From the NCBI GenBank assembly GCA_001784175.1, contig MFPR01000009.1:1-48616 (forward strand): a DNA stretch of 48,616 bases, written 5' to 3'. Position numbers and translations under genes: made by a program. Positions 1 through 44,100 of the stretch are shown here, one piece after another. Numbering within the stretch: the first letter of the stretch is position 1; each line of letters begins with the position of its first letter. The notes below the pieces were generated by a model. It was not told where the DNA came from and made no database searches. It saw nothing but the letters and a program-made list of their open reading frames with translations. This DNA comes from Candidatus Lindowbacteria bacterium RIFCSPLOWO2_12_FULL_62_27. GTDB taxonomy: Bacteria > Lindowbacteria > 2-12-FULL-62-27.

Positions 1-195
1 GTCTCCGTCGTTGTCGGCTCGGACGGGGGGATGTAGGCCTTCTTGTCCTCGCGCAGTCCCGTGAATTTGAGCGTCTCCGTCGTCGTCGGCTAGCTCGGCG
101 GGATGTACGCTTTCTTGTCCTCGCGCAGTCCCGTGAACTTGAGCGTCTCCGTCGTCGTCGGCTCGCTCGGCGGGATGTACGGCTTCTTGTCCTCC
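1..195 (-). repeat. 72-bp (24-aa) coding tandem repeat EDKK(P/A)YIPPSEPTTTETLKFTGLR, about 2.7 copies visible, running off the window edge
   Basis: Period 72: equivalent codons at 162-164 (GAG), 90-92 (TAG) and 18-20 (GAG) on the minus strand. Copies differ mostly at synonymous positions. Confidence 0.93.
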
Positions 196-1052
196 TTGGG
201 TTCCACTGGCGGCGCTTCTTCCTTCACCGGCTTCTTTCGATTCACCGCCGTCACTTCGCAGGTGATCTTCCTGCCGGCGTGTTCCGGCATTGGGGTGTAT
301 TCCCACTCCGTGGCGTTCGGAATCACTTTGCCGTCCACCAGCCACCGCACGGTCAACTTCGCGTCCGGGTCGTTCCACTTTCCGGGGTCGCAAATCAGCG
401 GTTCATTGACTTTGGGCTCCTTGTGTCCCTTCGGCCCCTTCGGGTCTTTCGGTCCCTTCGGCTCGACTGTCGGCGGTTCCAGGTTCTTCAGGACCGCCAC
501 CACCTCCACATTTGCCTCCAAGAATCGGCCGGTGGCGTCGGTAATCCGCACGATGTCAGTGACGCCGAATTTCTTGCCCGCCGTGTAAATGCCGTCGCCT
601 GAGATTTTCGCGCCGGACTTGTTCGTGGAGACCGTATATATATATGGAGGGATGCCGCCGGAAATGGCCATGTTGACTTTCGCGCCCGTGAAGACCCAGC
701 TCGAAAGCTTCGGTTTTAGGTCAGGCTTGAGAACGGCCAGCATCAGCGTGTAGCCGCTCCAGACTTTATAGTCCGAAAGACGCCGGCCGCCTTCAAGCAC
801 TTTGCCGCCAAAGACCAGGCTCTGATTTGAGGCCGGTATCCCGGTTTTCTCATAAATCTTCGCCTTGACCTTCTCGATGGTATCGTCCGGCGCCACATCA
901 AGGGTGACGGTGACCTGCTTTTGGGTCTTGACGAAAATCTCCATCGCGTCGGCCACGCCGGCGTGGAATCCCGTGAGGAGACACACGACCGCCGCCAATC
1001 GTAGGAACCACGATCGGTACACTTCCTCCTTCAACTTCACGATCACGGCCAC
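90..1052 (-). CDS. Secreted protein: signal peptide + eukaryote-like ubiquitin domain + Ig-like modules + Pro/Thr-rich repeats; the TAG at 90-92 is probably premature
   Basis: Signal peptide ends HAGVADA and is followed by MEIFVKT...DTIEKVKAKI...GIP...LVFGGKVLEGGRRLSDY (735-944). Next is an NKSGA-type module shared with 3844..5805 and a CxPGxW...W...TCxVTA Ig-like module. The reading frame continues in repeat register after the stop. Confidence 0.85.
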   Translation of the reverse strand: MAVIVKLKEEVYRSWFLRLAAVVCLLTGFHAGVADAMEIFVKTQKQVTVTLDVAPDDTIEKVKAKIYEKTGIPASNQSLVFGGKVLEGGRRLSDYKVWSGYTLMLAVLKPDLKPKLSSWVFTGAKVNMAISGGIPPYIYTVSTNKSGAKISGDGIYTAGKKFGVTDIVRITDATGRFLEANVEVVAVLKNLEPPTVEPKGPKDPKGPKGHKEPKVNEPLICDPGKWNDPDAKLTVRWLVDGKVIPNATEWEYTPMPEHAGRKITCEVTAVNRKKPVKEEAPPVEPKEDKKPYIPPSEPTTTETLKFTGLREDKKAYIPPS

Positions 1053-1088
1053 TGCATCAGCCTCACTGGGATCAACAGACCCGCGTGG

Positions 1089-1556
1089 CTATTTGAAACT
1101 GCCATCGACTTGCGCCACCAATTTGGCATTTGGATCGGCTCCCATAGTCTTGTCGTTGATGACAGCAGAAGCGAGGTTGCCGTACGTTGCCTTCCCTTTA
1201 GTGAAACTAAGTTCACAACTATACGTGGCCTTTATCTTATCCTTCTCGGAGTCAGTCACTGTCGGCCAAACGGTCGACATATAGGGTTGCCACTCCCCGG
1301 ATAGTTCCAGTGTGCCCGCGTACGCGCCGTCCTTAAGCGGAACTTCCTTTGCAGAACTTCCAGTCAGTTGACCCGCAGTGACGTTACAGTTGACGCTCAC
1401 TTTCACTCCCTCCACGACCTTCGAGATTTCGACGGGCACCTTGAGCGTGAACTTTTTCGTCTCGGCCGCCGACCCCGCCACAGCGGTCGCCGCCAAGCCG
1501 GCAATCATCGCTGCGACACCGACGGCGACCAACCCGAACATTTTCGTCTTCATCAT
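1089..1556 (-). CDS. Secreted hypothetical protein, paralog 1 (two Cys, beta-rich)
   Basis: GGAGG RBS at 1560-1564; ATG at 1556 or 1553; Sec signal MKTKMFGLVAVGVAAMIAGLAATAVA; clear paralog of 1704..2177. Confidence 0.82.
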   Translation of the reverse strand: MMKTKMFGLVAVGVAAMIAGLAATAVAGSAAETKKFTLKVPVEISKVVEGVKVSVNCNVTAGQLTGSSAKEVPLKDGAYAGTLELSGEWQPYMSTVWPTVTDSEKDKIKATYSCELSFTKGKATYGNLASAVINDKTMGADPNAKLVAQVDGSFK

Positions 1557-1616
1557 CAACCTCCGACATCCAACATTTTCAGCCGCGTCTGATGACCGGC
1601 CAAGTCTGACGCATTA

Positions 1617-1655
1617 AAATCCGAAATCCGAATATCGAAATCCGAAACAAATTCG
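1617..1655. repeat. Short heptamer tandem repeat, (AAATCCG)n-like
   Basis: aaatccg aaatccg aatatcg aaatccg aaacaaattcg in the intergenic spacer. Confidence 0.7.
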
Positions 1656-1703
1656 TAGTTGAAGATTTCCCATGCCGGGATCAACACCCCGGCGCGTGCA
1701 CGA

Positions 1704-2177
1704 CTATTTTGATAAATTGCCTTTGACTACCGCCACCAGTGTGGCTTTTGGATCGGGTTTCACCATAGTGGAAGTCGCTTTTGCTATGTCGTCGCCGGCA
1801 GCATACGAATTACTCCCACCATTGAGAATAAGCTTACAACTATACCCGGGAACTATCTTAGCCTTCTCGGATTCAGTCACACTTGGCCAAACGGTCGACG
1901 AGGATTTCCACTGCCCGGAAATCACCACATCGCCCTTGTACGCGCCGTCCTTAAGGGTAACTTCCGTTTTAGAATTTCCAGTCAGATAATCACCCGCTGT
2001 GACGTCACATTGGACGCTCGCTACCACTCCCGCCACGACCTTCGAGAGTTCGACGGGCACAGTGATCTTGAAGTTATACGCATCCCCCGCCTGCGCCACC
2101 ACAGCGGTCGCCGCCAAGCCGGCAATCACCGCTGCGACACCGACGGCGGCCAACCCGAACATCTTCGTCTTCATCAT
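1704..2177 (-). CDS. Secreted hypothetical protein, paralog 2
   Basis: GGAGG at 2181-2185; ATG at 2177 or 2174; same signal peptide and shared VPVE.SKVV.GV..SV.C.VTAG and STVWP.VT.SEK motifs as paralog 1. Confidence 0.82.
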   Translation of the reverse strand: MMKTKMFGLAAVGVAAVIAGLAATAVVAQAGDAYNFKITVPVELSKVVAGVVASVQCDVTAGDYLTGNSKTEVTLKDGAYKGDVVISGQWKSSSTVWPSVTESEKAKIVPGYSCKLILNGGSNSYAAGDDIAKATSTMVKPDPKATLVAVVKGNLSK

Positions 2178-2259
2178 CCACCTCCGACATCCAACATTTT
2201 CAGCCGCGTCTGATGACCGGCCTATTGAGAACCACGAATGAACATCTATAAAAAGACCT

Positions 2260-2628
2260 GTAAAGGGGAACAGACTTCCCCCGTCGCCCATGGAAGGGCG
2301 AAGTGCGCTTGATGTGGACCGGGCGTCGACGGTGGACATTGTCGAATCGCCGAGAGAGCTCCCCGAAGGGAGGGTTACAGCGGTCATGAGTCTTGACTCC
2401 ATCTCGAACAGGTTTCCTGTGTTTGCCAGTCATCTATACGTGACTCGTCCCGATCTGGAAGATCAAGACGGCCGATGGAAACAAATGGGCCTGACAGGCC
2501 GGGGCCGATCCACGAATAGAGGCTGTGAGCCGATACATTCGTCGGGACTCTCCGGCCGGCCTTTCGGAGATGGAGCGGGGATTCGTCAGGAAACGAATTG
2601 CCCCGTCCGACTTCGACCGAAAGAGTTG
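2260..2628 (-). ncRNA. Putative bridge RNA/seekRNA of the IS1111-like element (boundaries approximate)
   Basis: Target matches cacgaat (2511-2517) and cattcgt (2536-2542) flank a small hairpin (2521-2531); catctata (2431-2438) matches the IS end junction. Confidence 0.68.
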
Positions 2629-3657
2629 TCAGACCTTGTTCGGATTGAATTCCTCCCCTGTGTTCCAAAGATGAAGCAAGATCGAGAGGATCTTGCGTTG
2701 CGTCGTCAATCGAGCCACATGTTCTTTCAGCCCCGCTTCGCGGCGCCGCCGATAATAATGGGCGATGGGATTGTCGCCCTGAGCCGTGCGAAGCGCGCCC
2801 AGAAACGCATGGCGAGACATCGTCTTGAGAGCCTTGACCCCGCCGGTCGTCAGATGCGGTCGACCGATGGATTTGCCGGCCGATTCCTTGGAGACGACCT
2901 TCAATCCCGCGTAACTCCACAGATCGTGTTTGTCGGGAAATCGTTTGGGAATCTGGACAAACGCGAAAAAGGTGCAGGCGCCGATCGTCCCAACTCCGGG
3001 CACGGCAGTAAAACGGGTCACCTCCGGAAAGCGCCGTCCCTGTTCGATCATCTGCCGTTCCGCCTCTTTCTCCTGCTGTTCGAGTTGGTCCAGCCGATCG
3101 TAGGCATGGCGAAGGCGTGCCTGCGCCGACTCCGGCAGTTGCTTCATGATCACCTCGCGTGGCCCGGAATTGTAGACCAAATACCCCTTGGGAACCACTC
3201 CGTACTCTCTGAATTTGGCTTTGATCCAGTTCTTCAGTCGTGTGCCTTGCCGAACCAGATGCTCTCGATACTGGACGGCCCGTTTGAATTCGACCAGACC
3301 GTGATCCAGGCTGTGGTGGACGCGGCGAAGCGTTCCGAGCCGATACATCGTGGCCAGCTTGTAGGCGTCCAGCCGGTCCGACTTCATCCCGGACGTGATC
3401 CACTTGTTCTGTTTCGGCTCGCTCACAAACACGTCGGCGGAATGGGGACTGAGCGTCTCCACAAACCACTGCGCCATCGTCGATTCTTCCAGGACAAAAA
3501 CCGCCTCTGGAAATCGGTGGGCGAGCTTGATAAGGTTGTAGGCAGTTGTTTGAAAGCTGACCGGCTCGATCACGACGCCGGTCAAATCCGTGACGCACGC
3601 CTCGCAGATGCGAGAGTGCGCGTCCAATCCAATGATCCTTTTGATCGATCTCTGCAT
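2629..3657 (-). CDS. IS110-family transposase (RuvC-like DEDD + Transposase_20-type domain)
   Basis: IIGLDAH, VLEES and KSDRLDA acidic motifs; VPGVG; SYAGL...ESAGK serine motif; AGGAGG RBS. Confidence 0.95.
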   Translation of the reverse strand: MQRSIKRIIGLDAHSRICEACVTDLTGVVIEPVSFQTTAYNLIKLAHRFPEAVFVLEESTMAQWFVETLSPHSADVFVSEPKQNKWITSGMKSDRLDAYKLATMYRLGTLRRVHHSLDHGLVEFKRAVQYREHLVRQGTRLKNWIKAKFREYGVVPKGYLVYNSGPREVIMKQLPESAQARLRHAYDRLDQLEQQEKEAERQMIEQGRRFPEVTRFTAVPGVGTIGACTFFAFVQIPKRFPDKHDLWSYAGLKVVSKESAGKSIGRPHLTTGGVKALKTMSRHAFLGALRTAQGDNPIAHYYRRRREAGLKEHVARLTTQRKILSILLHLWNTGEEFNPNKV

Positions 3658-3723
3658 AGTGATCGACCTCCTTTGTGTGTAGTGTCATGAACACTGCCAC
3701 AAAGCGAGGTCTTTTTTTATTAC

Positions 3724-3799
3724 CACGAATGGGACGAATGGTACGAATAACCCCATTTTTTTATTCGTGTAATTCGTTTCATTCGTGCAATTCGTGTTC
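3724..3799. repeat. 9-nt periodic inverted repeat (ACGAAT units versus ATTCGT units); target of the IS
   Basis: acgaatggg acgaatggt acgaat ... attcgtgta attcgtttc attcgtgca attcgtgttc; a fourth left-arm unit lies at 2233-2244 on the other side of the IS. Confidence 0.8.
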
Positions 3800-3843
3800 A
3801 AAAGATTTGACACAGACCGTGTGACAAATAGACATGCATCGCC

Positions 3844-5805
3844 TTACTCCTCATCTTCCGTGCTCGCCGACGACGATCCTGACGTGACCTCGCCCATCTC
3901 GGCCTCCGGCGTGATCGTCAGCGTCAGCGGCGCGAGCGCTTCCGCCGGCGGCGGGGGCGGCGTGTTGACCTGAACGGTTGCGTCCGCCTTGTTGCCGTCT
4001 TCATCGGTCACGCGCGCCACATCAGTGACGCCGCCTGTGACTCCCGCGGTGTACGCGCCCGTTGCGGCGTTGATGGCCGCGCCGGACTTGTTGTCCGCGA
4101 TCGAAAACTTCAGCGTCCCCACGCCGCCCGTGGCGGTGAAGGATACCGGCTCTTGGATCATGATGCTCGATGTCTTCGGCGCGATCTCCAGAGCCGGCAC
4201 GACATTGACGGCGGCTTCCAGGAAATGTCCGCCGGCGTCCGTGACGCGAACGACGTCGGTCACGTTGGCTCTTGTCCCGGCCGTATACAGTCCCGTCGCG
4301 GCGTCGATCTTCGCGCCGGACTGGTTGTCCGGCACTGAGAACACGTAACTCCCAAGGCCGCCCGTGGCGGTGAATTGGACCGCCGCGTTCACCATCACGA
4401 CCTTGGCCTCAGGCGAGAGCGTCAGCGGCGGAAGGATTTTGACTTTTCCGCTCGCGCTGTTTCCGGCCTCATCGTATACCGCCACAACATCTTCAACCCC
4501 GTATTTCTTCCCCGCGCGATACAATCCGGTCACGGCATCGATCGTCGCGCCTGACTTGTTGGCGACAATGGCATACCGGTAGTGTCCGCCGCCGCCGACC
4601 CCGACAAACGTAACGGCGTCGCCGGACAGAACTTCGGAGTATTTGGGCGCGATGTCCAGACCTCCCGGCGCGACCACGAGAATGATCGGGATGCGCGGGT
4701 CGAACTCGGAGTAGAGTTTCGGAGGATACTCGACGATCAATCCAGCATCGACATCCCGCGCGATGAGACTCCACCGGTATTTTCCCGGCTCGGCCGGCGC
4801 CGCCATGTCGAACCGGGCGGTCACCGTATCCAGCGCGTTCACATTGATCGTGCGCGAAACCGTAGCGGCGTCGCGGCCCTCTTTGGAGATGCTCAATTCC
4901 AGTTTGATCCGGCGTTTCCGCGGTTCGAGGCTTGCGACCTGAAACTCGGCGGAAAATGCCGCATTGGGCGCAAGCGTGCGGCGGTCGACAAAGGGGCCCT
5001 TGATCACGATATCGCGTTTTGCGATCCGAATCGCGCATTCGCGAATCGATGTCACATCCGCATCGATCGTGACGGACTTGAGGCCCGGATCGACGCGAAC
5101 CGTCGCGTCCGAGACTTGGTCCTGCTCATCCCGGACGCGGACGACGTCCACAACCGGAGCGGCGGCGTTTCCCGCGACATACCGGCCGGTCTTGGGATCG
5201 ATCCGGCCGTTCGAGCGGTTTTCCACGAAATCATATCGATGAACATTGCCGCCGCCCAGGGTATGAAACTCGACCACGCCGCCGGGCGGCGCCATCACGG
5301 TCGCGGGCGCCATGACCAAAGGGCCGATGATCGTCGTCAGATGCCGGCGGCCGGACTCCGGATACGTCAACGACGCGCCGGATTTTTTGTCGGCCACCGT
5401 CAGGCGAAAGTCATACCCGCCTTCGAGGAACGGCGCAGCGATGTGAAAGACCATCGAGCCGGACTGGCCGGCGCCGAGTTTGAGGGTCTGCGCGTCGCCG
5501 CGCGCCGTGATTTCGGCGCCCGCACCCAAAATGACGAGTCCTCCGACGAACTCGCCGGGTTTGTCTCCCTTGTTCGTCACGCCGAACGTGATTTCGAACT
5601 TTGAATTCGACATCACGTTCTTCGACACCGCGCTCGGCCCGGACACGGCGATGGTCGCCGCGCCTTTCTTCGTCTGGGATTCCGCCGCCCGCGCTTGCGG
5701 CTGCTGCGTCAAAACCGGATAGACCGCGCAAAAAACAAATAACAACAACAAGGAAACCAGCATTCGCCGTCTGAAGCAGATGCTCAAGCTGCACCGTCCC
5801 TTCAC
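3844..5805 (-). CDS. Secreted/surface protein with Ig-like domains and four GG..Y....NKSGA.ID..TG.Y.AG....DVVRV.D modules
   Basis: Hydrophobic N-terminal signal segment; four related ~78-aa modules; Pro-rich acidic C-terminal tail. Confidence 0.85.
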   Translation of the reverse strand: MKGRCSLSICFRRRMLVSLLLLFVFCAVYPVLTQQPQARAAESQTKKGAATIAVSGPSAVSKNVMSNSKFEITFGVTNKGDKPGEFVGGLVILGAGAEITARGDAQTLKLGAGQSGSMVFHIAAPFLEGGYDFRLTVADKKSGASLTYPESGRRHLTTIIGPLVMAPATVMAPPGGVVEFHTLGGGNVHRYDFVENRSNGRIDPKTGRYVAGNAAAPVVDVVRVRDEQDQVSDATVRVDPGLKSVTIDADVTSIRECAIRIAKRDIVIKGPFVDRRTLAPNAAFSAEFQVASLEPRKRRIKLELSISKEGRDAATVSRTINVNALDTVTARFDMAAPAEPGKYRWSLIARDVDAGLIVEYPPKLYSEFDPRIPIILVVAPGGLDIAPKYSEVLSGDAVTFVGVGGGGHYRYAIVANKSGATIDAVTGLYRAGKKYGVEDVVAVYDEAGNSASGKVKILPPLTLSPEAKVVMVNAAVQFTATGGLGSYVFSVPDNQSGAKIDAATGLYTAGTRANVTDVVRVTDAGGHFLEAAVNVVPALEIAPKTSSIMIQEPVSFTATGGVGTLKFSIADNKSGAAINAATGAYTAGVTGGVTDVARVTDEDGNKADATVQVNTPPPPPAEALAPLTLTITPEAEMGEVTSGSSSASTEDEE

Positions 5806-5930
5806 GGCGGCGACCGTATCACGGCGGCCGGGTTATGCCAAGCCACTTATGGACAATTTTATCTATAATGTTGGGCCGATACTGGAAATGGGCCGGTCAA
5901 CGCCGGTTGAGAAGACTCCATATTCGTTTG

Positions 5931-5959
5931 TTGACTTGTTTCGATTCCGACGATATTCT
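5931..5959 (+). promoter_or_regulatory. sigma70-type promoter of the TA operon
   Basis: TTGACT-17 bp-TATTCT upstream of a GGAGGAG RBS. Confidence 0.6.
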
Positions 5960-6000
5960 TAACTATAAAGAGGTTGTAACTGGAATTGGAGGAGCGGAAG

Positions 6001-6450
6001 ATGAACAGACCCATTCACCGTGTATCGGATGAATCTGAATTAAGTATACGGGCCAAATCCGGCTTGTCGGCGGCCGAGTTTACGGGTACGTTCCAAACGC
6101 TGGAACAAAAAGGATTGGTTCAACGACATTCCGACGGAAAACTTTCGGCGGCGCCGACCGGATTGCGGCATCAAAATTTGTCCATCCCTGAATATCGGCT
6201 CCTCTATGCCATTCTCGGATTGGATATGATTGATCCGAACCATCCGGCCATTGCCGCCATACCGGACATCTTGAACAGCCGACCCCATCTGGCCGGCACC
6301 CGAATCGCGGTTGAGGACATTTCCAATTTGTACGAGGCCGGCTATGGCGCGGAACAAATTCTCCATGTATTCCCCCATTTAACCCGCGTTGACGTTGATT
6401 CCGCCTTGAGGTTTTATTTCGCCCAGTTGACGCCATCCAAGAAGACTTGA
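6001..6450 (+). CDS. DUF433-family antitoxin (VapB45-like) with an N-terminal winged-helix-like extension
   Basis: PDILNSRPHLAGTRIAVEDI...EQILHVFPHLTRVDVDSALRFY; RBS before ATG 6001; overlaps the next gene. Confidence 0.85.
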   Translation: MNRPIHRVSDESELSIRAKSGLSAAEFTGTFQTLEQKGLVQRHSDGKLSAAPTGLRHQNLSIPEYRLLYAILGLDMIDPNHPAIAAIPDILNSRPHLAGTRIAVEDISNLYEAGYGAEQILHVFPHLTRVDVDSALRFYFAQLTPSKKT

Positions 6451-6794
6451 TGCTCAAGCTCTTCCTGGATGAAAACATCACCCGGGCCCCCGATGTCGAA
6501 GAGGAACTCAATCGGCTGGGATTTGATGTTCTTTCCACGCAAACCGCGGGTCGGGCAAATCAAAGACTCAGTGATGAGGACCAGGTGCGATTTGCGGCAG
6601 AGCATGGTCGCGTGCTCGTCACCTTTAACATCCGGGACTACGTGAGCTTTTCGACGCACGCCGGGATTTTACTCGGAGAACAAAAGAATTTTTTGCATAT
6701 CGGAATCCTTATCCGAACGCTCATCAACGCCTGTAATCGGCTCGAGGCCGGGGACATTGTCAACCATGTCCTGCGATTGGAACAGCACCGTTGA
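6447..6794 (+). CDS. DUF5615 PIN-like toxin (VapC45-like)
   Basis: LKLFLDENI, LSDEDQVRFA, RVLVTFNIRDY and HAGILL motifs. Confidence 0.88.
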   Translation: MMLKLFLDENITRAPDVEEELNRLGFDVLSTQTAGRANQRLSDEDQVRFAAEHGRVLVTFNIRDYVSFSTHAGILLGEQKNFLHIGILIRTLINACNRLEAGDIVNHVLRLEQHR

Positions 6795-20534: not shown

Positions 20535-20657
20535 ACGGATTTTATAATTACGTTAGACGTTTTTGGTTGTCAACAGGCGAGGGTGCTTGCAAATCCATGT
20601 TCGCTCAACTAGCGTTCAAACGGACGGTGGAGGGACAAACACAGGAGGGTGTCTGCG

Positions 20658-23600
20658 ATGAACCAACTCTCAAGAGGTGAATATCAGATTTCACTCAGTT
20701 CACTGATGGCGCTGTTTTTTGTCTTTGTTTCCGCAGCTCACCCCGGACCCGTCCATGCCGTTTCAGGGTTCCAAGGAGTGGCTTATGAGCGGAAGGCGGA
20801 CGGAAGCATCGGCCCCACGATCGCCGGCGTGGCGATCAAGTTCGTCAGCGAGAACGGACAGGTGACGAAGACCGCGACGACGAACAGCACGGGATTCTAC
20901 CGCGTGGATCTTGATGTGGCCCGATATGGGGTGACGGCGGCACATCCGGATTATGAGAGCTATTCGTCCGCGCCGGGATTTTTTGTGGTCACGGCCGGGT
21001 CCTATCAAACGGGAAACATCTTTCTGAAAAAGGCCGCGTCGACGTCCGCCGGTTTGAAAATCACCGGCGGCGCCCAACTGATCGGGCATACGGACCTCAT
21101 CAACTCGGTCGCCTTTTCTCCCGACGGGCGGCTCCTGGCCAGCGGGAGCATGGACCGGACCGTGAAACTCTGGGACGTTCAAACCAACGCCTGCCTTCGC
21201 ACGCTGACTTTGCACACAAGCTGGGTAAGGTCGGTCGCGTTTTCCCCGGACGGAAAGCTCCTGGCCAGCGCGAGCGACGACAAGACCGTCCGGCTCTGGG
21301 ACCCGCAGACGGGCGCGCCGGTGCGCGTTCTGTCCGGGCACTACAGCGGCGTCTTAGCCGTCGCGTTTTCGCCGGATGGCCGCACGCTGGTCAGCCTTAG
21401 TCCGGTCAACAGGGGCGAACTCATCGTGTGGGACGTTCAGAGCGGCGCCCTCGTCAAGAGGATCGCCGTCAACCACACGAGCATGGTCCGCACGCTGGCC
21501 TTCTCGCCGGACGGCAAGACCGTGGTGACGGCCGGCGGCAGTCCCAACGGGCCCGGCGAAAACAAGGTCTGGGACATTCAAACGGGAACGTCGAGCAAGA
21601 CCCTCACAGACACCGCCGGGTTTGACGAGGCCGTCGCGTTCTCGCCCGACGCCGCCCTCCTGGCCGGCGCCGGCGGCATCTATGACAATGCGCTGACCGT
21701 CTGGGACGCCAAGACCTACCAGGCGCCGCCGGTCATGGTTCTGCCTCAAGTGGACCCGAGCGGAACGAAGAACGGACTGAAATCGGTGGCGTTTTCCGGC
21801 GACGGCAAACTCGTCGGTGTCGGAGGCGCCGTCGTTCGATTGTATGAGCGGGCGACCTGGAAGTCCGCATTGTACTTGTATCCCGAACACGGCGTCACGC
21901 ACACGCTGGCGTTTTGCCCGACGCGCCTCATGGTGGCGACGGCCGGCGCCAAGAAACTTCCGCTGGACAAGTACGCGATTCAGTTGTGGGTGCTCTCCTC
22001 CGGCGACGCGCCTCCCCCGCCGCCACCCGGATTGACGCTCGTTTCCAAGCATTTCTTCGGAGGCATGGGCGACCAGGCGGGGACCGGCATCTCCGCGCTG
22101 GGTGGCGCCGTTTATCTCTCCGGATACGACAATGCGGCCTACAACGGCCAGTCGATGGCCGTCGCCTTTGCGAATCCTCCGGCGGCCAATCCCCTTTGGA
22201 GCGCGCGCTGGCCGAACCAGAGCGGGTCTCCGCGGCCGGGCATGGAAAATTTTTCGGGCGTGTCGGCGTCGGACGCGGGCGCTTTTTTTGCGGGCATGAG
22301 CTGGACGCAGACGACAGATCGCGTCGGCGACAAGGAGAGCAAGAGCGTTCTGGTGAAGTTCCCGCTGAACGGCCCGACCGGCCGGGAGGTCGGCGGGGCC
22401 GACTGGGTCGCCAAGCCGGCGTTTTTTCCGAATTATTGGGGCTGGGAGTCGTTGAACGCGTCGCTGGTTTCGAAGGAAGGCAACAGCACGTTCATTTATG
22501 TCACCGGCGCGGCGCAGACCAACGGCGCGAACAACACGGCGGTGCTGGCCAAGTATGACGCCGCCGGCAAACACGTATGGCGGCTGGATCTGGGAGATCA
22601 TGGTCCTTACAAGAACAGCCGGGGGTACAGTCTCGCGATCGCAAACGGCCGGGTCTATATCGGCGGGATGAGTCACTATCCGTACACGGACCCAGCGACG
22701 GTTCGGGCGGGTCTCTGGACCTGCGACTTTTCCGGCGGCGGGAAACTCGCCTATGGCCTGTCGCGGTCGATGGGAAGCGAGCGGCCGGTTGCGGTGGCGG
22801 CGTCCGGCAGCAGCGTTTATCTGGCGATGGGGATCGACAACGGCCCCAATGGCGGGGTGGACGCGGTGGTCCAGAAGTACGATTTCAGCAAGACCAATTA
22901 TCTGGGATGGAACAAAACTTATGGCGGCCCGGGCGACGACATTCCGTACGGGCTGGCCGCGGACGACAAGCGGGTGTACGGCGTCGGCGAGACGAAGGAC
23001 AACCTGACGCAGGGCCGGGCTTCCGTGCTGGTCGAGATCGACGCCGCCGACGGAACGCGTTTGACGACGACGCGCTACGATGGAGACCGGGACGACGTCG
23101 CCAGAGGCGTGGCGGTCGCCGAATCCGACATCTATGTGGTCGGCGAGTCGAGAAGTTCCGGCGGGGCGGCGGGAAATGCGTCGGGACAGAGCGATCTCAT
23201 GCTCCTGCGCTACAAGGCCGGCGCGGCGCCGCCGAAGATTCTCCCGCCGGTCGCGGACGCCGGCCCGGACCAGACGGTGGAGTGTGACAGTTACATCGGC
23301 ACGCGCGTCCAGCTCGACGGCTCGATGTCCCGGGACCCGCAGGGCCGGACTCTGACCTACGCGTGGAAGTGGCCGCTGGGCAGCGCAACGGGCGTGAGGC
23401 CTTCGGTGCGCCTGCCGATGGGCCGGCATGTGATTGTCCTGACGGTCAATAACGGCGCTCTCTCCGCGGCGGACAGCGTGGTCATTCTCATCCGGGACTC
23501 GACGCCGCCCGTATTTCGCAGGCTCTCTGTCAATCCCAGCGAGTTGTGGCCGCCCAATAACAAGCCTGTCCTGGTCCGCGCAGACGCCATCGATGTCTTC

Positions 23601-23903
23601 GACAGTTGCACGCCCCGGCCGAGAATCGCGCTGGTCTCGATCAAAACCGGCCCGCCGCACCCGGGCGCCAAAGGGCCGTACGTTTCGGAGGCCCTCTACG
23701 GCACGGACGACCGGGCCTTCAAACTTCTGGCGGCCAAGAACACGACCGGCGATTCGAGAACCTACACGATCGTCTACCGGGCGACGGACAACGCGCGCAA
23801 TTCCTCCTACGATACGGCGCTTGTGGTGGTGCCGCATTCGAAGGGCAAGAGCGACAAGCCGGACGCGGGAGGTTCTGTTGGGGGAGGATCAAAAAAGAAG
23901 TAG
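20658..23903 (+). CDS. Secreted multidomain protein: carboxypeptidase-regulatory-like domain + WD40 propeller + second propeller-like region + PKD-like and C-terminal Ig-like domains
   Basis: Signal peptide; repeated GH...V.SVAFSPDG..LAS.S.D.TV.LWD; PPVADAGPDQTV...LDGSMSRDP; ELWPPN module; GGAGG RBS. Confidence 0.87.
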   Translation: MNQLSRGEYQISLSSLMALFFVFVSAAHPGPVHAVSGFQGVAYERKADGSIGPTIAGVAIKFVSENGQVTKTATTNSTGFYRVDLDVARYGVTAAHPDYESYSSAPGFFVVTAGSYQTGNIFLKKAASTSAGLKITGGAQLIGHTDLINSVAFSPDGRLLASGSMDRTVKLWDVQTNACLRTLTLHTSWVRSVAFSPDGKLLASASDDKTVRLWDPQTGAPVRVLSGHYSGVLAVAFSPDGRTLVSLSPVNRGELIVWDVQSGALVKRIAVNHTSMVRTLAFSPDGKTVVTAGGSPNGPGENKVWDIQTGTSSKTLTDTAGFDEAVAFSPDAALLAGAGGIYDNALTVWDAKTYQAPPVMVLPQVDPSGTKNGLKSVAFSGDGKLVGVGGAVVRLYERATWKSALYLYPEHGVTHTLAFCPTRLMVATAGAKKLPLDKYAIQLWVLSSGDAPPPPPPGLTLVSKHFFGGMGDQAGTGISALGGAVYLSGYDNAAYNGQSMAVAFANPPAANPLWSARWPNQSGSPRPGMENFSGVSASDAGAFFAGMSWTQTTDRVGDKESKSVLVKFPLNGPTGREVGGADWVAKPAFFPNYWGWESLNASLVSKEGNSTFIYVTGAAQTNGANNTAVLAKYDAAGKHVWRLDLGDHGPYKNSRGYSLAIANGRVYIGGMSHYPYTDPATVRAGLWTCDFSGGGKLAYGLSRSMGSERPVAVAASGSSVYLAMGIDNGPNGGVDAVVQKYDFSKTNYLGWNKTYGGPGDDIPYGLAADDKRVYGVGETKDNLTQGRASVLVEIDAADGTRLTTTRYDGDRDDVARGVAVAESDIYVVGESRSSGGAAGNASGQSDLMLLRYKAGAAPPKILPPVADAGPDQTVECDSYIGTRVQLDGSMSRDPQGRTLTYAWKWPLGSATGVRPSVRLPMGRHVIVLTVNNGALSAADSVVILIRDSTPPVFRRLSVNPSELWPPNNKPVLVRADAIDVFDSCTPRPRIALVSIKTGPPHPGAKGPYVSEALYGTDDRAFKLLAAKNTTGDSRTYTIVYRATDNARNSSYDTALVVVPHSKGKSDKPDAGGSVGGGSKKK

Positions 23904-40200: not shown

Positions 40201-41109
40201 CGCGTCTTTCAGCTTGCCCGCATCGTACAGCCGGACGCCCTCACGGAACCAGTCGTCGAGGGTGGACGCGCCGGTTTTCCGTTTCATGAACTCCGCAACG
40301 GCGGTCTGGCCATTGGCGGGAGACCACGATTTCAACCGGGCGTCCAGCGAGCGGTCGCGATCCGCCGTTCGCGCCAGCATCACGCGGGCCCGGGCATGGC
40401 GGGGATCGGTTTCGAGCGTCTTCTGGAAATTCTCAAACGCCTCCGTGAATTTGCCCGTCTCGAACGCGCGCGCGCCGCGTTCGAAGTAACGGTCGGCGTC
40501 CAGCCGGAGTTCCTCCTGCGCGAGGCGCAGATAGGCGCGGCTGTATTCCAGATGCGCGTGCGTGAACCGGTACAGCACGCCGGCGTCGAGGCCGACGCCG
40601 GTGCCCGAAAAGCCGCCTCCCTGATGTCGGACCAGATGGAGGCTTGAGCCGAGATAGAGTCCCTGCGTCATCTGCTTGCCGTAGCCGAACATCAGGTTCA
40701 TCTTGCCGACGTCGAACGTTCCCAGATTGGTGCCGAACTCATCCCGGCGCACGAGGTCGTCGGCGCCCTCGAGGATCAGCCCGCCGCCGATCGTGCCGAA
40801 CCGGCCGACCGGGTGTTTGTACGCGAGCATGTTGTAGAACGTGTTGTCAAAGAACGGCTGAGAATACTGCCCGAACATCTCTTTGCGGCGGTCGCGGTCC
40901 AGGGCGGACGGATTCCAGAACACGGCGGTCGCGTCGCTTCCCGCGGCCACAAAGGCGTTGCCCATGCCGCTGGGCCGCGCGCCGAATCCGAGGATCGTGC
41001 TGGGATCGACAACGCCGCCAGATTGGGACTTGGCGGAAACAGCAATCGGACAGAGGAGGGACAGCGCCAGGCTCGTGAGGAGACCGAAGATCTTGCGCCG
41101 GCCGTTCAT
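37264..41109 (-). CDS. PorV/PorQ-like (UPF0164-type) beta-barrel with an internal TPR insertion and a long C-terminal TPR array
   Basis: Signal peptide from ATG 41109 (ATGA-coupled to the upstream gene); GARPSGMGNAFVA..SDATAVFWNPSAL; DYAF...RIGLSYEFG; many TPRs. Confidence 0.87.
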   Translation of the reverse strand: MNGRRKIFGLLTSLALSLLCPIAVSAKSQSGGVVDPSTILGFGARPSGMGNAFVAAGSDATAVFWNPSALDRDRRKEMFGQYSQPFFDNTFYNMLAYKHPVGRFGTIGGGLILEGADDLVRRDEFGTNLGTFDVGKMNLMFGYGKQMTQGLYLGSSLHLVRHQGGGFSGTGVGLDAGVLYRFTHAHLEYSRAYLRLAQEELRLDADRYFERGARAFETGKFTEAFENFQKTLETDPRHARARVMLARTADRDRSLDARLKSWSPANGQTAVAEFMKRKTGASTLDDWFREGVRLYDAGKLKDAIPFFETVIRRARQSNVLNDRLSLGLNAQNLLQPSIKLDRASDRIPSNFKFGAAFQPVEWLLLALDADVPSKGPQRMHFGVEWRPLTWLAVRAGLDGDEPTIGFGFRFQDMKFDYAFEPSDDLDNNFQRIGLSYEFGRSHGDIVSAKIQRGLLMKSEKEHRQAVGEWESAMKLQPQNPVARSYIESSNEEYRRRVTDPWDSVGRQMEAGRWMEAHQALASILEYDPQFAPARDAKTRLDAGVPQYVESTFARGRLKFLQADYQAAEEAMTAVVYFRPDIEPARQYLESSKRRNETVSRDRRVREWHLQGLSRYRAGDWAAALDHFQKVLSHVPAHPAAGEVVEQILAFQKARFDADERRVEAERYFRTAAADFLNERWGRAERMVSHSLALLPAHAEAHDLLNHILAQQNQSLRALLSEGDEEMTQGRVDAAVERWHKAIDLDPENTEARTRIEKHWDKIVDFIESQTRLAAKLAEQGAYKESILSYNRILTVDPFNPVAAQGQSDARARLSSLLRESLARAEYFYQAGAYDKSAEALSELLALDPASQPALELKSKADEKAQAQAKLGRAAGLGRQGQEFFDTRRFNDAVAAWQSLVTEFGSDPSPELQRFVEKAREQIDIAVREAEWAESAELLAEYLRAGDGHYQAGRLVDALENYARAESLAPDHPEVQGRIRLVKESLNSQIPLWIAEGQSHAEAQRWDDAQAAFRSVLLVDPQNPDAAAGMDRVVEERRNAADRLEDVARAEELTGMAIESYRAGAHREALEHLEAARELQPDQPEIQRLIRELSRYVQVDEVYREALQAFQSADYKTAMAKFQSVAVLRPDDASVRDFIEKCRQALRGRDRESVERLVASATQHAQSADQAALQSRYDLALGRIQKAMDLYQKARKQDPENTGIRQSLREAESKAGAWRKIWNESKSADYKKYLYSGMSHYTSGRYREAIADWNRVLAADPEHILAKEYIRRAEKKLSKLEQ

Positions 41110-44100
41110 TTGACCACCATGATCCGGTCGGCCGCGACTTCGGACGACCCGTCGGTGTACTCGATCACAGCGCGGACGAAGTAGACGCCGTTCAGGACCG
41201 TCTGGCCCCGGCCATTTTTTCCGTCCCACGTCCGCTTCGTCAGCGTCGCCGCGTCGCCGAAAAGGTTTCCGGCCGCATAGGCGGTCGGCCCGATTTCGCG
41301 GACGAGCTGGCCGGCGAAATCGTAGATGCGGATGGTGACGGCGCCGGCCTTCGGCATGTTCCACGCGAACTGGAATCCCTGCCAGGAACCTGACGTGCCG
41401 GTGTACGTGACGGCGGGGTTGGCCGGATTCGGGAACGACCGGAACGATTCGGTCACCGTGCCGGAGGCAAAGGCGAAGACGACCGCAAAGACGGAGAAGC
41501 TGGTCGTCGGCGCGCGAATCGTCACCGTGCTTCCGTAATCGTCGAGCTGTGCGGTCAGAATTTCCCAGACCCCGGCGTCCTCCTTGAAATGCGCCATCCT
41601 CAGCATGCTGGCGTTCAGCACCGCGCCTTTGGCCTCCAGAAACTCGGTCGGCTTGATGATGGAAATGGCCACGTCCACCGGATTGAGGAAATCGGTCTGG
41701 CCGAGCGCGATCAGCGACGCGGAATCCGCCGGGTTCAATTTCTTCAGCGAGAAGTCATACATGGATTTTCCGAGACCGGCCGGAATCGGCTGGTACTGCG
41801 GATGCGCGGAGAGAACGTTCCGCGCGGTTTGCAGAACAGGATTGGTGTCGTCCGGGACAAAGACCTGCGGCCAGACCGATTTCACCTCGGGCACAATGTC
41901 CCCGCTGTCGATCTTCATCGTGGCCTTGCCGTCCTGCGAGGCCGTGACCAGTTCGCCCTGCGACGTCTGGAGAATCTGGAAGACCGACACGAACTCCGCC
42001 TGGAGCGAATCCGGCGGCGCGTCGCGGTCCTTGATCGACGTGCTCACCCGGATCTGGAAGGATTTACCGGCCGGCCATTCGGTGTCGGCGTAGATCGCGA
42101 CGATTTCGATGGTGCGACTGTCCGGCAGGCGGACGGATTTCGTCCGGCTGGTTCCGTTTTCATCGACGATGCGGACACCGGTTTCGTCGGCCGAACCGGA
42201 GTCGATGGGAACATTGAAGACGATGCGAATCGGCAGAAGCGCGGTATCGAAGGGCGGCGGGAGGACGTAGGCGCCATTGGACGGATTGACGGATGTGACG
42301 GCCGGGTACCGCGAGCGCACGGTGACGGTCCTGGAGGTCAGCGGCAGGCCGGAAATATCCGGCGTGCGGTTCGAAATTCCGCCGGTGGCCGTCAGGTCGG
42401 AAACGGACTGAATTTGCACATGGAAGGTGTCGCCATCGTTCAGAGACGCCGCTGTCTGATAGACCACAAGGATCGAAACCGTGTCGTTCGTCCGGAGGAC
42501 GATGGTGTCGCCCTGTAGATCGGCGGCGCCGCCGGACAGGGTCCCCGCGGCGAAGAGGGTGTCGGCGGCGTCCAGCATTCCGGGCGTTCCGGCGTCCCGG
42601 TAGAGTGCGACGGCCGTGACGCCGGACGCGCTCATGGAACCGCCGTGCGACACGCGGATTCTGCGGATGCCGACCGACTCTTTCTCATCGGCGCTGAGAT
42701 CGAACCGCGCGACGGCCTGGGTGTCGCGTTCCTGAATGGACAGGTCCGCAGGCTGCGTGTCGGACAGCGTCAAACGCAGGTTCCCGCGGAACGCTTCCAC
42801 GATAACGAGTTTGGTGTCCGCGCCGCCTTCGGGGTCCTGATACACCGCCAAGATCCGGCTGTCAGGCCCCACGGAGAGAATACCGTCTTCGGCGGCGAGG
42901 GCGGTCGTTTCGAGGAGGGCGATACCCAGGCTCCTGAATATCCCGGACGTTTCGCCGGTTTCGGTCAGGACCAGCGTCTGCGTGTCGAGGCCGGACGCGC
43001 CGGTCGAGGCGACGGTCAAAACCACGCGGACCGTGTCGGCGGCCTGCGGATTGCGATTTTCGTCCGCGTCGGCGACTTCGACGAAAATGCTGTCGCCCAC
43101 CTGGAACGTGTCGGCCGGCGCTGCAAACTGCGTGTCCCTGAAGAGGCGGATCTGCCCGGCTACCGGAGAATCGACGACGAGCGCGGTGTCCGAGGCGGCG
43201 TCCGATCCCGTGTTGGGATCCTGGTAAGCGGCATGCAGCGTATCGCCGAGGCCGGCGGCGAGCCGCCCGTCTCCTGAGATGAGCGGGAACTGCGTATCGA
43301 CAACGGCGATCGGCGAGCTTCTAAACGCGCCGGTCGTCTCGCCCGATTCGGTCAGGACGAGCGATTCCGTGTCGAGGAGGATCCCGATACCTCCGCCGGC
43401 GGTCGAACCGTTGCCGACGTACACGGTGACGGCAACGGTTTCCTTCCGGGTTGGGTCCCGATTCTCGTCCGTGTCGAGCACTTCGACGTAGAGCGCGTCG
43501 TTTCGGGCGAGTACCGTGTCTACGCCGTCGGTGAACACGGCATTCTCGTAGAATTGAATGGAGGCCGTTGTCGGTATTTCGATCGCCAGCGCCGTGTCTG
43601 AACGGGACTCGGACGTTCCCGACACGTCTTGATATGCGACGTGAATCGTGTCTTTTGATCCCCAGCCCAGCCGGCCGTCTCCGGCGGCCGGTACTACCTG
43701 ATCGGTGAGCGCGATCGCGCCGCTCAAGAAGGTTCCGGACGTTTCGGTCGACTCGGTCAACACGAGCGTTTCGGTGTCGAGAAGCGTGCCGCTCGCGTCG
43801 TCGCCGACGGTCACGGTGACGGAAACGGTGTCCTTCACTTGAGGATTGCGATTCTCGTCCGTGTCCTGGATCAGGACGTACAAGGCATCACGCGTGAGGT
43901 ACGTGTCGACGTCGTCGGTGAACGCCGCGTTTTCGAACAGTTGCAGGGCGGCGGACGACGCGATCTCGATGGCAAGGGCCGTGTCGGATACTTGATCGGA
44001 CGAATCGTTTTCGTCGACATAGGCCGCGTGAAGCGTGTCGCCGGCGCCCCAGCTCAGGATTCCGTCGTTCGGCCGGGGCGCGACCGTATCGACGATCGAG

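Follow-up and report, generated by a model that had tools for sequence, protein, structure and literature searches.

The closest described counterpart of eukaryotic ubiquitin in a bacterium is BfUbb of Bacteroides fragilis, which according to its published description carries a signal peptide, is 63% identical to human ubiquitin, has no Gly-Gly and bears a cysteine at its C-terminus; the protein is described as secreted, as binding the activating enzyme E1 and as inhibiting ubiquitination in vitro (PMC3352274). Later accounts place its cleavage exactly before ubiquitin residue 1 and describe it as toxic to other B. fragilis strains (PMC5705921), and report its uptake through ButCD, a SusCD pair, and its targeting of a peptidyl-prolyl isomerase (PPIase) of the periplasm (PMC11467351). 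The BfUbb literature calls a eukaryote-like ubiquitin in bacteria unique. Here we describe an open reading frame (ORF) at one end of a 48,616-nucleotide stretch of Candidatus Lindowbacteria bacterium RIFCSPLOWO2_12_FULL_62_27 (contig MFPR01000009.1, positions 1 to 48,616; the whole stretch is hereafter called the window), whose product carries a ubiquitin-fold domain directly behind a predicted signal peptide and, further on, an immunoglobulin (Ig)-like module and tandem repeats. This protein is a divergent, Ig-stalked member of a widespread prokaryotic class, not a one-off.

The window protein resembles BfUbb/BUbb (B. fragilis, B. ovatus), as far as these proteins are described, in its eukaryotic derivation, its predicted junction at residue 1, its missing Gly-Gly and its similar divergence, a likeness that rests on published descriptions and not on direct sequence alignment. 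In contrast to BfUbb, described as a free protein of 76 aa, it is a fusion of 320, 402 or 546 aa with Ig-like domains and repeats, encoded in a non-Bacteroides genome of about 61% GC. As it is not a free small protein, we did not class it as BUbb. ThiS, MoaD and the ubiquitin-like proteins (Ubls) of the Bil/Bub type have a beta-grasp fold with little sequence similarity to ubiquitin, end in Gly-Gly and are encoded beside E1, E2 or JAB genes. The beta-grasp fold is all that the window head has in common with them, since it is closely similar to ubiquitin, has no Gly-Gly and has no E1, E2 or JAB neighbours. With the eukaryotic polyubiquitin and ubiquitin-ribosomal fusions it shares fold, family and the N-terminal position of ubiquitin; those fusions are cytosolic, Gly-Gly-ended and cleaved by deubiquitinases (DUBs), whereas the window protein has a signal peptide, no Gly-Gly and a bacterial context.

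The ORF occupies window positions 90..1052 on the minus strand, starts with GTG at 1052 and encodes 320 aa in the order signal peptide, ubiquitin, Ig-like module, Pro/Lys linker, second beta domain and 24-aa repeats. Its ubiquitin part matches PF00240 over residues 39-107 (E=1.1e-20; 73.6 bits against a cut-off of 25.4), and in a phmmer comparison with the PDB residues 37-105 pair ungapped with ubiquitin 1-69 (E about 8e-19 for single ubiquitin chains), a resemblance that exceeds chance by far. The initial annotation of the window, made from the letters alone, had proposed a secreted, eukaryote-like and non-conjugatable ubiquitin domain on a bacterial protein, over a span of 735..1052 that comprises residues 1-106 (signal peptide 1-36 plus ubiquitin positions 1-70), with Ig-like modules and a repeat stalk behind it; profile, alignment and the missing Gly-Gly bear this out. 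Its figure of 40 identities in 70 residues stands as to the 40 ungapped identities with human ubiquitin, which the mid-line of the phmmer alignment spreads over 69 columns (58%). It was also right about the individual residues, compared position by position: K6, K27, K29, K33 and K48 are retained, K11 and K63 are replaced by V and S, respectively, L8, I44 and V70 of the hydrophobic patch read Q, V and A, and LRGG is absent. With H68 included, the patch reads Q/V/M/A and departs from the canonical recognition surface. Ubiquitin positions 73-76 are K-P-D-L, from where the chain runs on for 210 or more residues. Without a Gly-Gly end the head is therefore not conjugatable; the exposed C-terminal Gly-Gly of a conjugatable modifier is lacking in the window protein, and no E1/E2/E3 or JAB/DUB gene was found among the 27 window ORFs scanned with Pfam.

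An exhaustive HMMER search with the head domain returned 21,855 matches at E<=0.001. The 150 matches listed are all multi-repeat polyubiquitin-like, with at most 58% identity over the full domain and 61% over 61 residues, and nothing among the matches listed is closer to the head than ubiquitin itself. The initial annotation had also called for a structural model. AlphaFold2 (AF2), supplied with an alignment (A3) of residues 37-190 as first row, 42 related ubiquitin domains and three Ig-like repeats of a neighbouring protein, gave a predicted local distance difference test score (pLDDT) of 88.7 overall, with 91-97 in the ubiquitin fold, a soft linker and a seven-strand sandwich at 76-93. Foldseek paired the model with ubiquitin chains of the PDB over 71 columns (target-normalised template-modelling score, TM, 0.92-0.97; root-mean-square deviation 0.5-0.7 A), a fold match that indicates compatibility and is not independent evidence, because alignment A3 was built from ubiquitin relatives. 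From the single 402-aa sequence AF2 reached a pLDDT of 41, unusable overall. By profile and fold, the head is a member of the ubiquitin family and a close relative of eukaryotic ubiquitin.

Residues 1-36 contain the basic residues K6, K8, R13 and R18, a hydrophobic core (LAAVVCLLTGF) and alanines at -3 and -1, and the cleavage predicted by rule, A-D-A / M-E-I-F, directly precedes Met37, the residue aligned with ubiquitin M1. The same prefix/Met1 junction occurs in 61 ORFs of related loci. Cleavage before Met37, as first proposed together with the A-D-A end of the signal peptide, is thus probable from signal rules and these homologous ORFs. GAGG lies 8 nt 5' of the GTG start, and a second in-frame GTG at codon 11 would leave a signal peptide of 26 aa. 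A lipoprotein signal was ruled out, as there is no lipobox and V precedes the sole Cys. A promoter and terminator scan of window 1..6200 gave counts no higher than the shuffled level.

To place the window protein among prokaryotic ubiquitins, one genome per prokaryotic species was scanned with a four-row alignment of the window domain and three ubiquitin-like HMMER segments. The scan yielded 580 pattern matches and 511 confirmed ubiquitin-encoding stretches; the counts that follow concern the best 80 of the 511 loci, ranked by similarity to the query and, for lack of a 100% match, not including the window's own genome, and loci are cited by number (L) where they need to be told apart. Under a rule that looks for a hydrophobic core among the 30 residues closing the prefix and for small side chains at -1 and -3, a signal-like prefix ends directly before ubiquitin M1 in 55 of the 80 loci (61 of 93 ORFs), and ubiquitin residue 1 is Met in 65 of 66 prefix-bearing domains. 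In 42 loci a long C-terminal part follows the signal peptide and ubiquitin, in 7 a tail of 30-52 aa, hydrophobic with a basic end in most of these loci, and in 6 the two stand alone. Eight loci were classed as 'other', among them L025, L055 and L009, which are evidently signal-bearing too, while five encode a prefix-less stand-alone ubiquitin, with one more beside an ORF classed 'other'. Eleven encode polyubiquitin or ubiquitin-ribosomal fusions of the eukaryotic type and are probably eukaryotic contamination of prokaryotic assemblies; ten of these lie on contigs shorter than 5 kb. These probable contaminants are L012, L018, L020, L021, L027, L028, L035, L053, L056, L067 and L070; L018 is the one on a long contig (181,075 bases), and the cultured-isolate assemblies of Shimia, Paracoccus, Hyphobacterium and Halorubellus are among their sources.

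The C-terminal parts that could be named, using Pfam on 43 signal-bearing proteins and NCBIfam on 28 proteins, are surface anchors, sorting signals or Ig-type repeats. An autotransporter beta-domain is present in 11 of the 43 proteins scanned with Pfam, including those of Limnohabitans sp. DCL3 (complete chromosome), Pseudovibrio denitrificans, Pseudomonas turukhanskensis and Loktanella; two Marinilabiliaceae proteins end in a sorting tail of a type IX secretion system (T9SS), one of them also with He_PIG; L022 and L050 combine IPTL-CTERM with choice-of-anchor U, which L049 has alone; and SLH, choline-binding repeats, dockerin, Big_2, fn3, Flg_new and MBG/YDG were also found behind ubiquitin. 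NCBIfam holds no model for this class and gave only sub-threshold Rad23 matches. Searching plasmid records with tblastn added two members. The first is a 246-aa 'ubiquitin family protein' of Ruminococcus albus 7 on pRUMAL01 (L081:4010-4750), with a signal peptide and a near-canonical ubiquitin. RefSeq attaches to it the Gene Ontology (GO) terms protein ubiquitination and modification-dependent catabolism, which are likely inapplicable to a secreted, tail-less protein, and a dockerin-repeat protein is encoded about 1.2 kb downstream. The second, on a Pseudoalteromonas shioyasakiensis replicon, is a 2720-aa 'Ig-like domain-containing protein' with a 22-aa signal and a diverged ubiquitin (PF00240 E=3.8e-14) that is 45.6% identical to the window domain and precedes cadherin-like, He_PIG, Big_9 and Calx-beta repeats; it is the window architecture on a larger scale. 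Phage records gave no match. Carriers with complete chromosomes or from cultured isolates include Limnohabitans, Dyella, Pedobacter, Pseudomonas, Pseudovibrio, Ruminococcus albus and Pseudoalteromonas.

Stand-alone secreted copies are found in Pedobacter cryoconitis S3M1, where four tandem genes (L023:4817-6219, on a contig of 594,537 bases) each encode a 24-aa signal followed by a ubiquitin of 72-73 aa that has no Gly-Gly and shares 50-57% identity with the window domain; this array looks like a BfUbb-style arrangement of stand-alone secreted proteins in a soil or ice isolate of the Bacteroidota. Single copies of this kind occur in three Dyella species (L039, L058, L078). In a metagenome-assembled genome (MAG) of a Methanobacteriota archaeon, a near-canonical ubiquitin lies mid-protein behind an archaeal pilin N-terminus (L010:5644-6429, contig of 167,202 bases; PF07790 E=8.4e-8), which may be an archaeal route for displaying ubiquitin on a filament at the surface; immediately upstream is a gene with a rhomboid domain. 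A Rickettsiales MAG encodes a canonical 76-aa Gly-Gly ubiquitin without signal peptide between NusA and L20 genes (L071:2727-2957), which could be a cytoplasmic ubiquitin of an intracellular bacterium, and prefix-less ubiquitins like it are also found in L029, L045, L057 and L062. In a MAG labelled 'bacterium' (L014:6001-9076), a stand-alone ubiquitin is encoded about 1.2 kb from a major capsid gene of nucleocytoplasmic large DNA viruses (NCLDV; PF04451 E=2.2e-61), and the contig comes from a giant virus and was binned as bacterial. L006 and L011, MAGs labelled Planctomycetes and Kiritimatiellia, encode identical 395-aa signal-ubiquitin proteins; at least one bin label is probably wrong, so that phylum counts taken from record titles are approximate.

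No neighbouring gene is conserved across loci and lineages, and the module seems to work without a dedicated partner encoded alongside. Recurring neighbours, namely a short-chain dehydrogenase family (4 loci) and a family of unknown function (4 Clostridia loci), were judged coincidental or lineage-specific, and antisense or alternative-frame ORFs over the ubiquitin gene were discounted. Like the other members, the window protein combines an A-x-A / Met1 junction with extracellular modules at the C-terminus, and it lacks both the conjugation tail and a conserved partner gene. It differs from most of them in that its head is 54-58% and not about 91% identical to ubiquitin, its patch is altered and no anchor is recognisable; the Pseudoalteromonas shioyasakiensis head is the sole class member that is comparably diverged.

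The frequency of this architecture, 55 of the best 80 of 511 loci, does not bear out the rarity implied by the initial annotation, whose choice of BfUbb as the known relative stands. The suggestion that the window holds an undescribed system does not apply to the protein itself, which belongs to a class visible in databases, and may still hold for the class. A literature search that took in few subscription journals and no supplements found no publication on N-terminal ubiquitin in autotransporters, T9SS cargo or other surface proteins, and the class may thus be undescribed; the supplementary list of bacterial BfUbb homologues that accompanies PMC11467351 may already include some of its proteins.

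Whether such ubiquitins belong to the genomes that carry them was approached through GC content at third codon positions (GC3), for which prefixes of at least 15 residues were taken, polyubiquitin-type loci excluded and three non-signal rows kept (L010, L062, L066). In the ubiquitin part, GC3 spans 0.17 to 0.96; it correlates with GC3 in the remainder of the ORF (r=0.95, n=46) and with flank GC content (r=0.92, n=65). Contigs longer than 100 kb carry at least 20 of the signal-bearing loci. The 66 prefix-bearing domains (L010, L018, L020, L056, L062, L066 and L067 excluded) are 71-97%, median 91%, identical to canonical ubiquitin, taken as positions 1-72 of locus L071. Positions 73-76 are free to vary, with Gly at position 75 in 13 of the 66 and at position 76 in 7. 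From host-like GC3 together with 91% identity it follows that the coding sequence has fully adapted to each host, whereas the protein has kept its surface and lost its conjugation tail. This pattern implies that the genes have long been resident, under strong purifying selection in favour of something that reads the ubiquitin surface.

The window head lies outside this near-canonical range, being 54% identical to canonical ubiquitin over positions 1-72 and at most 60% identical to its best relative in the set, L001. Thirteen of its residues occur in none of the 66 domains (K11V, E18A, N25K, Q31Y, E34T, T55R, N60K, Q62W, K63S, E64G, S65Y, H68M and L73K) and cover the 60-65 loop, while the minority states D16, V44, V49, Q8 and S42 are shared with some bacterial copies. 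The phylogeny that had been called for was built from 89 ubiquitin domains and gave a star-like tree in which 3 of 79 inner branches are well supported. The window sequence sits on its second-longest terminal branch (1.22 substitutions/site against a median of 0.047) and joins the signal-bearing L001/L019 at 89/26, that is, without support, so that descent from the bacterial pool is plausible only.

The features of the ubiquitin gene and its closest neighbours are collected in Table 1. Behind the head, the Ig-like module gave no significant Pfam match; BLASTP pairs it with three repeats of the 653-aa neighbour at 49%, 39% and 39% identity (best E=1e-16), which, together with the modelled beta-sandwich, agrees with the first description of a chain running on into Ig-like modules. 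The second beta domain gave weak matches only (ZirU family E=0.01, SCAB-Ig E=0.16). The 320-aa protein falls into a 90% cluster of three members, of 320, 402 and 546 aa, whose first 320 residues are identical and whose differences are confined to the repeat array, the 402-aa form having about 4 repeat units and the 546-aa form about 10 (counted from printed sequences). The three are found on 2, 2 and 1 contigs, the longest of 126,522, 57,535 and 26,444 bases, respectively. The TAG that ends the window ORF stands where the preceding repeat and the 402/546-aa forms have a Glu codon, and is either a genuine nonsense allele or the product of faulty assembly or sequencing within a 72-bp repeat where the contig ends. 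In the longer forms the C-terminus consists of PLSLTLTPE and, behind it, an acidic stretch rich in Ser/Thr, which resembles the tail of the 653-aa neighbour and is absent elsewhere in the window. The shared tail, PL[ST]LT[LI]TPE (window 3844-3930 and the C-terminus of the ubiquitin protein), resembles the first strand of the Ig-like repeat (PLTLSPEAKVV), and may be a truncated repeat, a strand-donating element or a sorting element. A word-index search with the whole protein found its own cluster only, among 2650 candidates; with the head alone it gave 2 candidates, neither of them scored, the shared 5-mers being too few to inform about relatives. An ESM Atlas search with the 402-aa form gave no usable match.

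Table 1. Features of the ubiquitin gene and adjoining genes (positions in the window).
Feature	Position	Strand	Basis or remark
Predicted signal peptide, residues 1-36	945..1052	minus	ends G-V-A-D-A before Met37; rule-based reading
Ubiquitin-fold domain, residues 37-106 (ubiquitin positions 1-70)	735..944	minus	PF00240, phmmer, AF2, Foldseek
Short linker (~residues 107-112) and Ig-like beta-sandwich (~113-190)	483..734	minus	BLASTP, AF2
Pro/Lys-rich linker, residues 191-216	405..482	minus	translation; low complexity, disordered in single-sequence model
Second small beta domain with two Cys, ~residues 217-272	237..404	minus	translation; strands pLDDT 57-79 in single-sequence model
72-bp (24-aa) tandem repeats, running off the window end	1..194	minus	Tandem Repeats Finder (TRF): period 72, 2.7 copies, 90% matches
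In-frame TAG ending the ORF within a repeat	90..92	minus	frame open beyond, to base 1
Small secreted protein, no known family	1089..1559	minus	36 nt upstream of the ubiquitin gene; N-terminal hydrophobic signal
Paralogue of the 1089..1559 protein, 157 aa, 55% identical	1704..2177	minus	start set at MMKTKMF Met
IS110-family transposase	2629..3657	minus	PF01548 E=1.2e-13, PF02371 E=4.8e-10
653-aa secreted protein with at least 3 Ig-like modules	3844..5805	minus	BLASTP; tail PLTLTITPE and acidic Ser/Thr-rich end

The first of the two small secreted proteins upstream has no Pfam or NCBIfam match, and among 5.8 billion proteins only itself and its paralogue were found. The IS110 transposase gene sits between these small genes and that of the 653-aa protein, which has no Pfam match at E<=0.01. 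No SusCD-type or toxin-immunity family was detected near the ubiquitin gene within the window, the rest of which carries ordinary genes of a bacterial chromosome (TRAP transporter, sigma-54 activator, ABC-2 transporter, AcrB/OEP, Kup, CorA, Rrf2). GC3 is 0.83 in the signal peptide, 0.72 in the ubiquitin part and 0.79 in the rest of the ORF, against 0.66-0.82 in six other window genes; given this homogeneity and the bacterial context, a chimera or a eukaryotic contaminant is unlikely, and the same 320 aa in three cluster members on several contigs likewise argue against a chimera, in line with the bacterial linkage at first assumed. Farther away, the window end cuts a minus-strand gene (41106-48611) whose product exceeds 2500 aa and contains fn3 and Ig-type domains; the last 150 aa of this product are like FlgD-Ig/T9SS-type C-terminal domains (PorU C-terminus E=2.9e-7). 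This end hints at type IX-like secretion in the organism; the ubiquitin protein has no such tail. At 5986-6794, adjoining DUF433 and DUF5615 genes overlap by 4 bases, a pairing that we take to be typical of a toxin-antitoxin-like module, and at 20649-23903 a 1084-aa protein with eukaryote-like WD40 beta-propeller repeats (PF00400 E=2.3e-45) adjoins a 698-aa TPR/LysM protein.

The anatomy of the window protein is nearly certain. As to its role, we lean slightly towards an exported extracellular stalk protein with a non-conjugatable ubiquitin-fold head as binding module, the chances of a binding function of the head being roughly even. Export by the Sec route, followed by signal-peptidase cleavage, would present the ubiquitin-fold domain as a free N-terminus; the head, presumably descended from eukaryotic ubiquitin, would be continued at its C-terminus by the Ig-like domain, linker, beta domain, repeats and acidic tail. 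A permanent C-terminal fusion without Gly-Gly allows neither conjugation nor release by the usual ubiquitin chemistry, and the anchors, sorting signals and Ig-type repeats at the C-termini of the class would place ubiquitin at a tip that points away from the cell. We infer for the window protein an extracellular location, probable association with the cell and a distal head, which would most likely recognise an extracellular partner non-covalently, in the manner of an adhesin or a bait; as the canonical contact residues are altered, this partner has probably shifted away from the classical ubiquitin-binding domains.

Several points weigh against this reading. All signal-peptide assignments come from our own heuristic and not from a trained predictor, the counts rest on the top-ranked 80 of the 511 loci, and the labelling of some MAGs is doubtful. 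The TAG in the window cuts the protein short of its C-terminal end. Pfam and NCBIfam recognise no anchor or sorting signal at the C-terminus of the 402-aa form, so that its tethering and orientation are drawn by analogy only. Finally, the outlier status of the head could reflect relaxed selection in a domain with no specific ligand.

The initial annotation had offered three functions: mimic or decoy, antibacterial effector, and leader for folding or export. Among the alternatives, mimicry directed at eukaryotes would make the head a decoy or handle that engages ubiquitin-binding proteins, E1 or DUBs belonging to a host, a grazer or an alga. The near-canonical relatives retain nearly every surface residue (median 91%) despite complete codon amelioration, a conservation that fold stability alone hardly explains, and many carriers are, by their record titles, aquatic or gut bacteria. 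For these relatives the case is strong, but it is weak for the window copy, in which positions 8/44/68/70 read Q/V/M/A and K11, K63 and the 60-65 loop are altered; moreover, ubiquitin-binding machinery is cytosolic whereas the head would stand outside the bacterium, and no host or grazer is known for the organism. We therefore regard mimicry as an unlikely role.

Ubiquitin is unusually stable and in use as a solubility tag. As a passive module, the head would be a fast-folding, protease-resistant N-terminal cap or an export or folding leader without a ligand, which fits the strict N-terminal position in 61 ORFs, the fusion to unrelated C-terminal modules and the strong divergence of the window copy, as expected if the fold alone matters. 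Constraint on the fold, however, does not predict a median identity of 91% across hosts with GC3 from 0.17 to 0.96, and in the 6 stand-alone secreted loci, including that of the four tandem Pedobacter genes, there is nothing to cap; we consider this account unlikely.

An antibacterial effector of the BfUbb kind, in which the head, perhaps freed by proteolysis at the linker, would enter competitors and inhibit a periplasmic target such as a PPIase, with the two small upstream secreted proteins as conceivable immunity factors, is in our estimate likewise unlikely. The signal peptide, the missing Gly-Gly, the cleavage before residue 1 and a similar divergence (63% versus 58%) are shared with BfUbb, and the gene is immediately preceded, on its own strand, by two orphan genes for secreted proteins. 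Yet BfUbb is a free 76-aa protein and the window head is fused to 215 to 440 further residues with no evident processing site, no SusCD-type or toxin-immunity family was detected nearby in the window, and the small neighbours, upstream and of no known family, constitute weak evidence as neighbourhood alone.

An artefact or dead gene, be it a chimeric assembly, eukaryotic contamination or a functionless pseudogene, to which the in-frame TAG at a contig end, the nearby IS110 element and the eukaryote-type contaminants on small prokaryotic contigs (11 of 80 loci) might point, is highly improbable, given that one open frame of homogeneous GC3 spans the signal peptide, the ubiquitin and the Ig-like part, that the same 320 residues recur in three cluster members on 2, 2 and 1 contigs, that a head only 58% identical to any eukaryotic ubiquitin seen is no stray eukaryotic read, and that the TAG lies beyond all folded domains.

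Returning to the extracellular stalk protein with a binding head, its main value is as a pointer to a widespread and seemingly unstudied class, in which unrelated genomes, dozens of them, share a junction at ubiquitin Met1 and the domain is joined to most well-known types of surface anchor. A tentative, broader model is that bacteria and some archaea of about 16 labelled phyla have independently fused a near-unchanged ubiquitin to their own surface anchors, that ubiquitin so displayed addresses eukaryotic ubiquitin-binding machinery or a conserved bacterial target, and that the window head is a retargeted offshoot. As a diverged, Ig-stalked variant, the window protein may show how the module is re-used once its canonical surface is freed from constraint. 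The use that prokaryotes make of extracellular ubiquitin, in contact with eukaryotes or in bacterial competition, can now be addressed in culturable strains; if the broader model is true, surface ubiquitin would be a widespread prokaryotic way of addressing eukaryotic machinery or a conserved bacterial target.

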